A stretch of DNA of 63,390 nucleotides, filler included, from Reclinomonas americana ATCC 50394 (GCA_048213135.1; 18 parts of 18 records of this genome joined end to end with filler, not necessarily neighbours in it), one strand, 5' to 3'. Numbered from the whole stretch's first letter, positions 8,701 to 59,344 are shown. Notes: generated by a model from the sequence alone, not told the origin. A program made the numbers and translations.

Positions 8701-9160
8701 GGCAAGCGCTCCTTTCCTTCTCGCCTCTCTCAGTATGGCTGATCGAGAGAGGCAGAGAGAGACAGAGATGCAAAACGCAACGACATCGACCAGTGCGCTG
8801 TAGTCCGGCAGCCCTTCGTCAGGCTGAATCCAGTGACCTGCAACGCGCGTCTCGCTCAGCCTCAATCACGCACAGAGAATGAAAGTGAAGCAAGACCTCC
8901 AACAAACTCCCAGCGTCCCTGCTGCACGAGCTCCTGCACAAACTGTCGATCCTCAATCGACGCCTCCTCGTACCATCGATGGAAGAACGAACTGCAGCGC
9001 ACATTAGACAGACACAAGGAGAGAGACAGAGAAAGAGAGACACGCAACGTTTCCGCCCAAGTAAACTTTCGCGCCGAGTTGCCTCGCAACGCCGCCAGCA
9101 CCGATCGGAAGATGTTAGAGACCTCAGAGCGGTAGTAATCCTCAAAGGTCTTTAACCAGC
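2717..9160 (-). CDS. GH38 class II alpha-mannosidase with C-terminal Pro-rich stalk and TM helix; multi-exon, 5' end in gap
   Basis: Motifs GWLKTFEDYY, KFTWAE, WEFVGG-GWIQPDE, RIGWQIDPFGH, FMPYADNEDSYWT, QHHDSITGTS and C-terminal TIEPADIRTLVV. An in-phase 57-nt intron (3697-3641) links this to ORF 2717-3640 (poly-Pro, acidic tract, TM LWIFLGITGWVLIVLYLVY). Confidence 0.93.
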
Positions 9161-9730
9161 CTGACGAAGAGAGAAAGGGAGTGAGAGATTGAAAGAGAGA
9201 GAGAGAGAGAGAGAGAGAGAAGAGGAAGAGAGGGAGAGTTAGAGTGAGTGAGGAGAGTTAGAGTGAGTGAGGGAAGGGAGAAAGAGAACGAAAGCGATTG
9301 AGGAGGAAGAAAAGGAAGACTGCCAGGCAGAGGAGATGTGCAGAGCGACACAAAGAGAGAAAGGCAAAGAGGGAAAGGGAGGGAGGGAGGGAGGAGTGAG
9401 GAAGAAAACGAAAGCAACGTGTGAGAAGAGAAGAGAGAGAGAGGGGACAGAAAGCAGATCGCAAAGCAGGTTAAAGATGCGCAGACAGACAGACAGAGAG
9501 GNNNNNNNNNNNNNNNNNNNNNNNNNNNNNNNNNNNNNNNNNNNNTTAATTAATTAANNNNNNNNNNNNNNNNNNNNNNNNNNNNNNNNNNNNNNNNNNN
9601 NAGAGTAGAGTGTGTGTGTGTGTGTGTGTGTGTGTGTGTGTGTGTGTGTGTGTGTGTGTGTGTGTGTGTGTGTGTGTGTGTGTGTGTGTGTGTGTGTGTG
9701 TGTTGGGTAGAGAGAGAGAGAGAGAGAGAG

Positions 9731-9790
9731 AGTTGAACTTGGTCATCAAGACAGCTGTTGCTTGTTTGTTGGTGAATGAATTTGTTGTTG
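9731..9790 (-). repeat. Dispersed repeat copy A (truncated by microsatellite)
   Basis: GTTGAACTTGGTCATCAAGACAGCTGTTGCTTGTTTGTTGGTGAA is the exact reverse complement of about 18675-18719. Confidence 0.85.
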
Positions 9791-55897: not shown

Positions 55898-58800
55898 ATG
55901 GCTGCGCCGATCTTGCCTCGACGCCCAGTGATTGCTGGCGACTACGGTGACTCGAGTGGTGGCGGTGGACATGGCGACGATGAGCTGTACGGTGGATTTC
56001 AGGACGAGGAGTATGGAGTTGCGTTGTCTCACTCTCCTCTCAACTCTTGCACACTCTCACACACTCACTCTTGCGGACGCCCTCAGTTTGATTCGTATGG
56101 TGGTGGCGACGAGTACGGTGCGTACACGGGCGTCGGCACGTCGTATGGTGGCGGCTACCCACCAGGGACAGCTGGTTTGTCGTCTCCCTTTCTCTCTCTC
56201 TCGTCCCTCTCCTCTCTTGTCTGTCTCACACTCGGTGTGTGTGTGTGTGTGTGCAGCTCGCATGGGCACCAGTGTTGGCTTCATGCCAGGCACAGCCATG
56301 TACGGTGGTGTGCCGGGCACTGCAGCGCAATTGTACGGCGGTGCTCCGGGTGGAGAGAGTGCACGCCCTGTGACGAGTGTGCGCGCTGCCGGGTACACGT
56401 CGGCAGGGCCAGCCACTGCCGGTGGTCGCCAGATCTTTGATCCCATGAAGAGTTGCGCTCGGTCTTTGCTCTTCCGTCCCCTTCTCTTTCCTGTCTGACG
56501 TCGCGTGTGAGCAGCCAAGGGACCTGCGCCACCGCTGCAGAAGAAGAGCGAGAACGGACCAGAGGACATGGCCATGGAGAAGGAGCGCGAGGTGCAGGAC
56601 TTGTTGGAGCAGAGTGTGCAGGCCAACACTGAGGTGTGTCACGAGCCCATTGATGTGGTGTTCTTGCTCTCGTCATGCTCAACAATGGAGCAGGGCAACT
56701 TCACTCTGGCGTTGGATCAGGCTCGCGAGTGCGGCAAGAAGGAGCGCCAGTTGGTGCGCTTCCGCGAGCAGAAGGAACTGGCGGAGCAAATCAATGTCGA
56801 GTTGACATACGCAGTCGCCTTCAATCTGGCACTGCAGTACGAGGCCAACAGCATGTTCACCGAGGCGCTCAACACGTACTCGTTGATCATCAAGAACCGG
56901 CAGTATCCACAGGCTGGTCGACTGCGCGTGAACATGGGCAATCTGTTCTTCAGACAGGTGTGTTGGTGCACGCGGGTAGGGGTCTTTTGTTTTTCAATGC
57001 GTCTCACTGCTTGCTTTCGTTGCAGCGAAACTACCCCATGGCCATCAAGATGTACCGCATGGCACTCGACCAGATCCCACAAACCTCACGCAATTTGCGC
57101 TTCCGCATCATGAAGAACATTGGCATTGCGTTCACCAAGACGGGCGACTACCAGCAGGCGCTGCAGTCGTTCCAGTCGGTGATGGAGGGTGCACCAGATC
57201 CACAAACAGGTGCCTCTCGTGTCCGGAGTGAGCGCAAGGCTCCTTGTCTCACCACTTGTTCGTCCACAGGCTTCAATCTGCTCTTGTGCTACCTCTGTTT
57301 GGACGATCCCGATCGGATGAAGCGTGGCTTCATGAAGCTCATCACATCCAAAGTCATGCAGTCGCACGCCGAGATTGTGGATCAGCCAGCCGAAGAGGAG
57401 CAGGAGGAGGAGAACATTGAGGACTACGAGGACGACTCGCTCAAGGACCTGATGAAGGAGCGGTACGTGCCTGTGCGAGTGAGACTCACGTGTCAACTGC
57501 ATGGTACAGCTAACTCACCATACACCACCGCAGCATCAAGGCCGCTCAAAAGTACATGCTGATGGGCGCCAAGCTTATTGCGCCAAAGGTGGAAGACAAC
57601 TGGGAGATTGGCTTCGACTTTGTCATTCAGCAATTCCGCGTGGCATCGTCCACCAACCCCATGATGGCCGACCTGGCCACGGAGATGGAGATGCACAAGG
57701 CGGTGACCTACCTCAACCACAAGGAACTGGAAAAGGTCGGTCTTGCTTGTTGCAGTCTGGTCTACATTGCCGCTCACCTTCTCGTTTGCAGGCCATCGAG
57801 TCGCTGAAGGCATTCGAGAAGAAGGACAAGAAGCTGAAGGCCCGCGCTGCTACCAACCTGTCGTACTTGTATCTGCTCGAGAATGACATGCCAAATGCCG
57901 AAAAGTGGGCCAGTTGCGTGCGACACTCGTGTGATACACCCTTCTCACACACTAAATGCAACCTCTCACGCAATACTGCACGGTAGATCTGGCGATTGAG
58001 GCCGATCGGTACAACGCCAAAGCCCTGGTCAACAAGGGCAACGTGCTGTTTGCGCAGCGCAAGTGGGTGGAGGCCAAGGAGTGCTACTCGGAGGCCGTAT
58101 CACTTGAGGCCGATCTTGTGGAGGCTGTGTACAACCTCGGCTTGTGCAACAAGCACCTGGAGCTGTTCAACAAGGCCCTGCACAATTTCAAACTCGTCTA
58201 CAAGCTCATGCCCAGTTCGCTCGACGTGCTCTGGCAAATGGGTGACATGTTGCGTACCACCGCCGCCACACTGCCGCACCCGCTATGCAGCCTGTTTTTT
58301 TTTTGTTTTTGCTGAGAGAGAGAAAAATGATGTCGCAGCTACGATGTCCTGCACACGAAGGAGATGGAGAATTTGTCGGCCGACGAGGTGGATCGTGAGA
58401 ATTTGGAGAGGAGTCTGGTGCGTATACAGAAGAATGCACAGATACAGGCAGGTGACACCACGTGCACGCTGCTCATTTCTGGCGCGCAGGAATACTTTGA
58501 CAAGCTGCATCACCGCGTACCCACTGATCCAGGCGTCCTGGCGCGCCTCGGTCAGCTGCACTGCAAGACCAACGACGAGGCTCAGGCATATCACTTTTTC
58601 GCCGAGGTACGTGACCCACACCTGCACGGCAGTGTGCCACACCACACGCACTCACACTCACTTCTCCGCCGACAGTCGTACCGCTACTTCCCCGTCAACA
58701 TGGACGTCATCTCGTGGCTGGGCGCCTACTACGTCAAGAACGATCTGTTTGAGAAGGCCATTCAGTTCTTTGATCGTGCGGCGCACATTGAGAGCGACAA

Positions 58801-59344
58801 GCCCGAGTGGCAGCTGCTGGTGGCCAGCTGCTACCGACGTATCGGCATGTACCAGCAGGCCAGGGATGTGTACGAGGAGATTCACGCCAAGCACCCAGAC
58901 AATATGGAGTGTTGCGTCCCTGCTCAGTCACAGTGCCGACCTGCGGCCTGCGAGTGCGCTCACGGTGATGTTGGCAGGCTTGAAGTACTTGTACCCGATC
59001 TGCCAGGACCTGGGGTTGCACAAGGAGGCACAGGAGTATCTGACCGCGTTGCATCGACTCGAGGAGCGGCAAAAGGATCCAGCGCGCTTCGCACCGCCAC
59101 CAAATGCCGACAACCCAAAGTCAGCGGCCGCCGCCAGAGGCGCCGACCCGAGCGAGGAGCCGGCACTGAACTCGCCGCGTCGTGCCAAGGAATTTGGCCA
59201 GCAGCCTGCCAGTTGCGCTCACTAATGCTATGTTCCTCTCTCTTGTTAACGTTGACTCACGGTTGTTTCGCAGCAATTGGTGGTGGCCGCGGTGGCGACG
59301 ACGATTGGGGCGACGATGGTCTCGACGATCTTTTGCCCACGTAA
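55898..59344 (+). CDS. IFT88: Intraflagellar transport protein 88 (TPR)
   Basis: DDELYGGF, ARPVTSVRAAGYTS, EALNTYSLIIKNRQYPQAGRLRVNMGN, AIKMYRMALDQIP, ALVNKGN, SYRYFPVNMDVISWLGAYY, WQLLVASCYRR, C-terminal DDLLPT*. The start codon could be at 55835. Confidence 0.97.

Follow-up and report, generated by a model that had tools for sequence, protein, structure and literature searches.

A second class of GT-AG donor, GTTGCG after a non-G exon end, and its one-base offset from the ordinary 5' splice site in a 63-kb window of Reclinomonas americana

We analysed the 5' splice sites of a window of 63,390 bases from Reclinomonas americana ATCC 50394 (GCA_048213135.1), the window being the whole stretch of DNA under study. 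Two kinds of GT-AG, U2-type donor are present in it. With the cut marked by a slash and alternatives in parentheses, the first reads G/GT(G/A/C)N-G-T and the second, found after exons that end in a base other than G, reads H/GTT-GCG-(T/C). Throughout the text, H stands for A, C or T and V for any base other than T; class 1 designates the G/GTV donors and class 2 the H/GTT donors, -1 being the last exon base and +1 the first intron base. An earlier note on this DNA had suggested that GTTGCG may reflect a mainstream mode of donor recognition. This description holds for the window only, in which roughly one intron in three or four belongs to class 2. Judging from the sequence patterns, we regard recognition by the U1 small nuclear RNA (snRNA) in a register shifted by one base as the best explanation for the two classes, with a confidence slightly better than even.

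Results

The excess of GTTGCG is visible without any gene model. Counts in the window were compared with those in 100 dinucleotide shuffles of it. GTTGCG occurs 82 times, against 46.87 ± 6.21 in the shuffles, none of which (0/100) reaches 82. HGTTGCG is found 73 times (35.67 ± 6.08 in the shuffles; reached in 0/100) and GGTTGCG 9 times (9.71 ± 2.75; reached in 68/100). The entire excess is confined to sites after a non-G base. The core of the ordinary donor follows the opposite trend, with 26 GGTGCGT (10.0 ± 3.3 in the shuffles) and 50 HGTGCGT (36.2 ± 5.8). The anticorrelation of GTTGCG with a G at -1, which had been set as a test beforehand, is visible in these raw k-mers of the window, and the 14 donor positions listed in the earlier note all carry GTTGCG on the given strand, each of them preceded by A, C or T at the end of the exon. 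The nucleotide directly after GTTGCG is T in 42 of the 82 matches. Thirty of the matches were called as donors (28 after H, 2 after G), and 15 are non-donors on the sense strand; 17 others are on the antisense strand, and the gene models do not cover the remaining 20. Separately, four copies of (C/T)AGCTT/GTTGCGTTCTTT are found on the minus strand between 914 and 1598 (at 919, 1245, 1409 and 1597), spaced by about 160-330 nt and outside the gene models; they may be a repeated exon-intron unit.

Junctions were also fixed by homology, with profiles built from relatives (34 IFT88 proteins, 4 GH38 proteins, 25 sphingosine-1-phosphate (S1P) lyases and 2 AGMO-like proteins). For each gap between exons, we considered all in-frame, stop-free pairs of donor and acceptor, whatever their dinucleotides, and gave the peptide joined across each pair a profile score. 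A GT-AG pair is at or near the top score in 28 gaps of the four genes. These 28 introns comprise 17 G/GTV donors, 11 H/GTT donors (10 GTTGCG and 1 GTTATGT) and no mixed donor (Fisher test, P = 4.7e-8), with a class-2 share of 11/28 that is an overestimate because the four genes were chosen for GTTGCG donors seen previously. All 11 H/GTT junctions are GT-AG, in frame and best or near-best. Homology backs 8 of the 14 listed donors (9048, 24262, 29398, 29661, 30633, 56452, 57913 and 58911), for which the GTTGCG GT-AG pair lies 0 to 3.4 bits from the top junction and is the best or sole GT-AG solution. At 56452, a rival GC-AG junction with its donor at 56455 scores 73.9 versus 73.5. Ordinary donors had been described as reading mostly G/GTGAGT, G/GTGCGT or G/GTACGT, which is right in spirit: the 17 homology-fixed donors that do not begin with GTT all have G at -1, and their hexamers are GTGTGT (three), GTACGT (three), GTGAGT (two) and nine singletons.

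The position of the intron at 24262 is common to S1P-lyase fragments of other organisms, each an open reading frame (ORF) in which the same exon ends in ...PE, followed by M and a T-initial codon (P0059, P0060, P0107 and P0108). From this, a putative phase-2 intron with T as the last exon base can be placed at the same point in these fragments. Reading back from the codons, P0108 and P0060 imply the candidate donors T/GTG(T/C)GT and T/GTCNGT, and P0059, the exon of which is 82% identical, implies T/GTT(A/G)GC. As its position is shared with other organisms, this intron is old and not a recent insertion.

For a census of the whole window, we used a gene finder that is blind to the donor sequence. 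It combines a 3-periodic Markov coding score with an acceptor matrix and an iteratively learned prior on length, and requires only GT..AG and introns of at most 300 nt. In this parse the window holds 31 gene pieces with a total of 117 introns. The most frequent donor hexamer among these is GTTGCG (18), followed by GTGTGT (10) and by GTGCGT, GTACGT and GTTTGT (6 each). A G at -1 is found in 1 of the 18 GTTGCG donors versus 45 of the 99 others (P = 0.0012), and among the 54 other non-G donors many look misplaced or false. A two-component mixture fitted to the donors by expectation-maximization from random starts returned caG/GTGtGT with a weight of 0.61 and gga/GTTGCGT with a weight of 0.39. Once the mixture was fed back, the self-trained parse also contained 117 introns and recovered 11 of the 15 junctions verified by then. 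The curated set, i.e. the self-trained parse plus the 28 verified junctions, holds 123 introns: 60 G/GTV, 34 H/GTT, 11 G/GTT and 18 H/GTV. The blind parse and the k-mer counts are independent of the self-trained donor model. Of the 30 GTTGCG introns that the final set contains, 22 would cause a frameshift and/or an in-frame stop if retained, 3 could be translated through and 5 are phase-ambiguous.

Homology and/or the blind parse support 12 of the 14 listed donors. At 49273, the HSP20 profile is matched over positions 15-46 and then 69-102, around a 62-nt exon; at 47081, 56018 and 59212, use of the donor is backed by the gene-finder parses only. The two others, 49870 and 58249, are found in the self-trained parse only, and the homology window for 58249 ended short of the acceptor at 58338. 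The H/GTV group is mostly doubtful; its introns are longer, the branch motif is present in 2 of 17 and the acceptor is GAG in 7 of 18. G/GTTTGT constitutes a third, minor donor type, with five predicted cases (4126, 4635, 6776 and 28923 on the minus strand, 56175 on the plus strand), in addition to two G/GTTTGC. It has T at +3 yet G-T at +5/+6, which is the normal register with a G at -1.

We then compared the logos of the two classes in the curated set. Class 2 (n = 34) shows G31, C31, G32 and T25/C7 at +4 to +7, and class 1 (n = 60) shows G44, C22/A19/T15, G53 and T41 at +3 to +6. Scored with the class-1 columns, positions +4 to +10 of class 2 give +4.1 bits per donor at an offset of +1, versus -5.0 at 0, +1.2 at -1 and -9.8 at +2. 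The same scoring of the blind set gives +0.45 (+1), -2.09 (0), -0.96 (-1) and -6.78 (+2). G-T occupies +5/+6 in 22 of the 36 blind G/GTV donors versus 1 of the 29 blind H/GTT donors, and +6/+7 in 3 of 36 versus 11 of 29. Further downstream, +8 of class 2 (G16, T9, A6, C3) mirrors +7 of class 1 (G27, T16, C11, A6). The rarer H/GTT donors A/GTTATGT (fixed by homology), A/GTTACGT and A/GTTGAGT correspond to GTATGT, GTACGT and GTGAGT moved by one base. The anticorrelation with -1G, which a split consensus read in a single register would show, is present, but the intron-side motif is displaced by one base. The claim that GTTGCG resembles the canonical donor shifted by one nucleotide stands as regards the sequence patterns, with +1 the best offset in the curated and blind sets; as regards pairing, class 2 is weak with a human-type U1, as detailed in the Discussion.

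An anticorrelation with -1G could also arise by compensation between the exon and intron sides without any change of register. In that case U6 or a protein would read GTTGCG as the strong intron-side motif of this lineage, in a manner resembling the AG//GU (mainly U5 loop 1) and //GURAG (mainly U6) classes. Anticorrelation between -1G and intron-side strength is described as a general feature in the excerpts of PMC11732430 and PMC9803359, and the first base of the downstream exon differs between our two classes (P = 0.006), which hints at different exon contacts. However, we see no complementarity between UUGCG and the conserved ACAGA box of U6 when the two are placed in the usual register, and the compensation model leaves the one-base displacement relative to the ordinary motif unexplained. 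It also predicts that H/GTGCGT would serve non-G exons at least as well, whereas at most 2 such donors are predicted versus 28 H/GTTGCG. We consider it quite improbable. The avoidance of -1G and the near absence of H/GTGCGT both fit a shifted reading, in which G+1 stands in place of -1G.

Beyond the donor, the introns of the two classes are alike. Their median length is 69 nt in class 2 and 66 nt in class 1, a small difference (Mann-Whitney, P = 0.024). CTCAC and ACTCA are the enriched branch 5-mers, CTCAC occurring 55 times in the last 40 nt of introns versus 5 times in intron bodies. The branch motif CTSAY is present in 22 of 34 class-2 and 48 of 60 class-1 introns, at a median distance of 19.5 and 18 nt from the 3' end, and the acceptor has C at -3 in 28 of 34 and 50 of 60, respectively. 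Given this common length, CTCAC branch motif and CAG acceptor, both classes are ordinary U2-type introns handled by one spliceosome. Exons downstream of class-1 introns begin with G in 26 of 60 cases, and those downstream of class-2 introns in 5 of 34 (T in 14 of the latter; Fisher test, P = 0.006), with exon contexts G^G and H^T/C, respectively; this difference may reflect phase, class 1 being mostly in phase 0 in the blind parse.

Two special intron families were considered for class 2 and rejected. U12-type introns have the donor RTATCCTT and, close to the 3' end, the branch site TCCTTAAC, and the class-2 donor logo is GTTGCG(T/C), with the same CTCAC branch motif as class 1. For an introner or another transposon-derived family, an all-against-all BLAST of end-trimmed introns did not reveal sequence shared along the copies; it gave 166 matches with E < 0.01, and the best 20 of the 166 are mostly between CT-rich introns, with one 13-nt match between two class-2 introns.

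More generally, the second class could be an artefact of wrong gene models, of a mobile-intron family or of U12-type introns. Two of the 14 listed donors (49870 and 58249) come from the self-trained parse alone, and the four GTTGCGTTCTTT copies at 919-1597 lie within a tandem repeat. Nevertheless, 10 GTTGCG donors are fixed by homology in four unrelated genes, the k-mer excess is independent of gene models, and the intron position at 24262 is common to other organisms. The CT-rich nature of most of the best 20 of 166 BLAST matches argues in the same direction, as do the absence of any donor resembling RTATCCTT and a CTCAC branch identical to that of class 1. An artefact is therefore very improbable.

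Genes and other features of the window

The window has a G+C content of 52-61%, is dense in genes and is rich in introns. It is a scaffold of contigs of 2-7 kb joined by linkers: 17 N blocks lie between 2120 and 61400, each of them a 100-nt linker N44-TTAATTAATTAA-N44 (e.g. 2120-2219 and 30456-30555) with a stop in all six frames. Several linkers are bordered by simple repeats ((AG)n, (ACGT)n-like runs, CT-rich runs), and linkers also lie inside two long introns, in the S1P-lyase gene (SGPL1; 24598-25571) and in the AGMO-like gene (29807-30633). As the window is rich in introns and encodes IFT88, it derives from a flagellated organism. The closest database relative of an IFT88 exon is 64-72% identical, and a metagenome scan with P0059 gave 51 loci, the best with 77% identity over part of the query. 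Between 1 and 35000, the plus strand has an excess of A over T of 15-25% and an excess of G over C that reaches about 17%; the genes predicted there are mostly on the minus strand, with a sense strand that is rich in pyrimidines (CT runs), above all in introns.

Pfam was run on 300 stop-to-stop ORFs of at least 100 amino acids, and named few genes because the exons are short. Besides the genes of Table 1, HSP20, DUF3429 and dual-specificity-phosphatase-like genes were named. Family or homology matches bear out the gene labels given earlier for the mannosidase (GH38), SGPL1 (S1P lyase), HSP20 and IFT88. For the gene labelled AGMO, they support membership of the fatty-acid-hydroxylase family and nothing more specific. 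The label SLC35 has to be dropped, as Pfam gave no SLC35 or nucleotide-sugar-transporter match for that gene (45818-47189, minus strand). Its exon 47082-47189 has no Pfam match, and the sole match of exon 45818-47005 is Rpc31, below threshold (19.5 bits versus a cut-off of 30.2). It may be a part of the SET-domain model at 39556-47189 or a separate gene. Likewise, Pfam assigned no family to either exon beside the 49870 donor, in the gene previously called a membrane protein.

Two gene models call for a remark. In the GH38 gene, the exon predicted as the last (2729-3640, minus strand) encodes a tail of about 300 amino acids, rich in proline, aspartate and lysine and with a hydrophobic end. Mannosidases do not usually carry such a tail, and the model may have fused a separate gene to the mannosidase here. 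In the DUF3429 gene (plus strand), the profile is matched over positions 36-70 in exon 51779-51922 and over positions 78-142 from about 52171. Given this continuity, the modelled 38-amino-acid exon at 51990-52103 is probably false, and a single intron of about 240 nt (51923-52170) is likelier.

Table 1. Introns of the second donor class, class-1 reference donors and main genes of the window
Feature	Position	Strand	Basis
Class-2 intron C/GTTGCGT...CAG, 57 nt, GH38	8992..9048	minus	Homology 67.8 vs best 70.1, only GT-AG within 6 bits; read-through 46.5
Class-2 intron C/GTTGCGT...CAG, 914 nt, GH38, absent from the earlier note	7868..8781	minus	Homology 66.3 vs best 69.3
Shift-type intron with another core, A/GTTATGT...CAG, 69 nt, GH38	7533..7601	minus	Homology, tie at best 100.5, only GT-AG
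Class-2 intron T/GTTGCGT...CAG, 55 nt, S1P lyase	24208..24262	minus	Homology 128.3 vs best 128.6, only GT-AG
Class-2 intron C/GTTGCGT...CAG, 66 nt, S1P lyase, absent from the earlier note	22014..22079	minus	Homology, tie at best 42.8, only GT-AG
Class-2 intron C/GTTGCGT...CAG, 827 nt, linker inside, fatty-acid-hydroxylase/AGMO-like	29807..30633	minus	Homology, tie at best 63.0
Class-2 intron C/GTTGCGT...TAG, 155 nt, AGMO-like	29507..29661	minus	Homology, tie at best 78.9
Class-2 intron C/GTTGCGC...TAG, 68 nt, AGMO-like	29331..29398	minus	Homology, unique best junction, 137.3 vs 134.4
Class-2 intron A/GTTGCGC...GAG(CAG), 60 or 63 nt, IFT88	56452..56511	plus	Homology 73.5 vs best 76.9; both parses
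Class-2 intron A/GTTGCGT...TAG, 74 nt, IFT88	57913..57986	plus	Homology 126.1 vs best 127.6, only GT-AG within 6 bits
Class-2 intron T/GTTGCGT...CAG, 67 nt, IFT88	58911..58977	plus	Homology, tie at best 103.7, only GT-AG; missed by both parses
Class-1 reference donors of IFT88, all G/GT with non-T at +3	56634, 56958, 57210, 57463, 57736, 58607 (56634..58675)	plus	Homology
Class-2 intron A/GTTGCGT, 69 nt, IFT88, N-terminal part	56018..56086	plus	Blind and self-trained parses
Probable class-2 intron T/GTTGCGT, 90 nt, IFT88	58249..58338	plus	Self-trained parse only
Class-2 intron A/GTTGCGC, 62 nt, IFT88, C-terminal part	59212..59273	plus	Blind and self-trained parses
Class-2 intron C/GTTGCGC, 76 nt, unnamed gene (earlier SLC35)	47006..47081	minus	Blind and self-trained parses
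Class-2 intron A/GTTGCGC, 59 nt, HSP20 gene	49273..49331	plus	Blind and self-trained parses; HSP20 profile continuity
Probable class-2 intron A/GTTGCGT, 74 nt, unnamed gene	49797..49870	minus	Self-trained parse only
Predicted class-2 intron T/GTTGCGC, 66 nt, GH38	6869..6934	minus	Blind and self-trained parses
Predicted class-2 intron T/GTTGCGT, 75 nt	19457..19531	minus	Blind and self-trained parses
Predicted class-2 intron C/GTTGCGT, 71 nt, large SET-domain gene	42034..42104	minus	Blind and self-trained parses
Predicted class-2 intron A/GTTGCGT, 83 nt, phosphatase-like gene	53428..53510	minus	Blind and self-trained parses
Predicted class-2 intron A/GTTGCGT, 67 nt	59840..59906	plus	Blind and self-trained parses
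Predicted class-2 intron A/GTTGCGT, donor 62959, 65 nt	within 62895..63130	minus	Blind and self-trained parses
Predicted class-2 intron T/GTTGCGT, donor 63130, 69 nt	within 62895..63130	minus	Blind and self-trained parses
GH38 alpha-mannosidase	about 2.7-9.2 kb	minus	
CAP-Gly protein	10.1-11.0 kb	plus	
Sphingosine-1-phosphate lyase (SGPL1)	21.2-25.7 kb	minus	
Fatty-acid-hydroxylase/AGMO-like gene	28.4-30.9 kb	minus	
Large SET-domain gene	39.6-47.2 kb (model 39556-47189)	minus	
IFT88	55.8-59.3 kb	plus	
Rcd1/CNOT9	61.5-62.7 kb	plus	

Discussion

The two donor classes are best explained as two forms of a single 7-nt signal, G-(G/U)-U-G-C-G-U, read in a single register of the U1 5' end. The U6 ACAGA box would later bind through the G-U at signal positions 6-7, and cleavage would take place before the first G-U of the signal. 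With G at position 2, the first G of the signal would stay in the exon (class 1); with U at this position, it would become intron +1 (class 2). In a class-2 site, G+1 opposite C9 of U1 would thus replace the -1G of class 1, U+2 would be mismatched opposite C8, and the downstream pairs would form one base later. This shifted register is known from rare human sites and would here be routine. In its full form, the proposal is that the spliceosome reads this signal in one U1/U6 register while the cut floats by one base to the first GU, that a G opposite U1 C9 is near-obligatory and comes either from the last exon base or from intron +1, and that the shift is routine for exons unable to end in G. 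The 5' end of U1 would have co-evolved with the donors, pairing with G-C at its positions 5-6, or there would be two isoforms differing at position 8. We put forward this complete scenario tentatively, as plausible but somewhat short of an even chance.

Several observations weigh against a shifted register, first of all the pairing with U1. A human-type U1 5' end, taken from the table in PMC4856993, was used for this purpose; it may not be that of this organism, and a search of the window with Rfam at gathering thresholds detected no snRNA gene. With it, class 1 pairs in the canonical register with a mean of -7.3 kcal/mol, and class 2 reaches means of only -0.86 kcal/mol shifted, -0.47 bulged and 0.0 canonical. 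The shift is preferred by 18 of the 34 class-2 donors, and the other 16 gain nothing in any register. At the positions where a canonical U1 would favour A-A-G, as in the human shifted oligonucleotide of PMC4856993, class 2 has G-C-G almost invariably (31 to 32 of 34). Under the model, H/GTGCGT would form at least as many base pairs as a shifted site, so pairing strength alone fails to explain why the shift is preferred. The exon side is equivocal. When -1 of class 2 is compared with -2 of class 1, A is found at -1 of class 2 in 17 of 34 curated donors and in 3 of 11 homology-fixed ones (C in 6 of 11), a mirror that is suggestive in the former set and not in the latter, and on which we therefore do not rely; moreover, -2 of class 2 is G-rich, unlike -3 of class 1. 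Other points concern the gene models and the strictness of the split. Four of the 15 junctions verified by then were missed by the self-trained parse (two in-frame introns read through, two donors misplaced), and the curated set depends partly on this model, restricted to GT-AG introns of at most 300 nt. In place of 49870 and 58249, the blind parse took 49855 (G/GTGCCG) and 58294 (GTTTTT). Two G/GTTGCG donors are predicted (494 and 4270), out of 11 G/GTT in total, of which five are G/GTTTGT. Finally, a few H/GTV donors look real (22296, C/GTGAGT; 5348, C/GTGCGT), so the rule is strong and not absolute, and the homology set is enriched in class 2 by the choice of its genes.

The weak pairing of class 2 with a human-type U1 and its demand for G-C-G suggest that the U1 5' end may differ in this organism or that a second U1 isoform may exist, variant snRNAs having been the second option given in the earlier note. 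Because of this demand, a difference from the human type at U1 positions 5-6 is probable. Such a U1 could even dispense with the shift. If its 5' end, or that of a second isoform, paired contiguously with GUUGCGU (e.g. with A for C at position 8 and G-C for the two pseudouridines), class 2 would be a fully paired ordinary site. The poor pairing of human-type U1 with class 2 in every register would then be expected, full complementarity would suit the far greater strictness of class 2 (G-C-G in 31 to 32 of 34, versus C22/A19/T15 at +4 of class 1), and the excerpt of PMC8457000 reports variant U1 genes from other organisms. The one-base relation of the logos out to +8 and the donors GTTATGT, GTTACGT and GTTGAGT are, however, more simply explained by one RNA read in two frames, and we rate a dedicated or altered U1 as unlikely, though a serious contender.

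A bulged U is another way to accommodate the additional T. In this arrangement, G+1 pairs with C8 of U1 and one U of +2/+3 bulges out, so that class 2 would be the class-1 signal with an inserted U; GT-T-GCGT is indeed GT-GCGT plus one T. The table of PMC4856993 assigns 68 predicted human sites to the bulge +2/+3 register, and U6 pairing at the catalytic stage would presumably need such a bulge anyway. However, -1G should remain favoured through C9, yet it is found in 2 of 30 GTTGCG donors and GGTTGCG shows no excess. Furthermore, with a human-type U1 the bulged energy (-0.47 kcal/mol) is no better than the shifted one. The bulged register is improbable in our view, and the shifted register remains the explanation that we prefer.

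Shifted-register 5' splice sites in human genes were reportedly described by Roca and Krainer in 2009, and bulge +2/+3 sites by Roca et al. in 2012. A literature search by motif and by shifted register, not by organism name, revealed no lineage with a common donor class of this kind; the motif matched no paper on splicing, and the shifted register returned human or therapeutic work only. According to the excerpt of Tan et al. 2016 (PMC4856993), U1 registers of the shifted and bulged types have been demonstrated in human cells and are rare, the validated noncanonical registers together accounting for 1.5% of 201,541 human sites. Human shifted sites resemble class 2 in having GU at +1/+2, U at +3 and a cut at the GU, and their U1 pairing one base over, with G+1 opposite C9, is the one proposed here for class 2. 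According to the same excerpt, they are rare and have a core A-A-G-U that matches the canonical U1, whereas class 2 concerns roughly a quarter to a third of the introns with a core G-C-G-U; class 2 also differs from them by its near-absolute tie to a non-G base at -1. Bulge +2/+3 sites share the GUU start and, on a bulged reading of class 2, one unpaired U, but keep the benefit of -1G, which class 2 avoids, and number 68 predicted sites in human (PMC4856993, excerpt). In the AG//GU and //GURAG classes, as presented in the excerpts of PMC11732430 and PMC9803359, sites without an exon-side G likewise carry a stronger intron-side motif, but both motifs are in one register, whereas here the second is moved by one base and the split is near all-or-none. 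U12-type introns also provide a second donor consensus beside the main one; class 2 differs from them by a donor that is not RTATCCTT and by a branch site, length and acceptor equal to those of class 1.

These observations have a practical side for annotation. Gene finders based on a single donor matrix would mis-call many exon ends in this genome, and the donor-blind parse itself misplaced several; donor models need a dependency between -1 and +3. If the shifted reading is true, a genome with roughly a quarter to a third of its introns in a shifted register would be a natural system for studying how the spliceosome selects the cut site where U1 helix and GU are out of step by one base. It would also bear on the freedom of the U1 5' end, which is among the most conserved RNA segments, to change.

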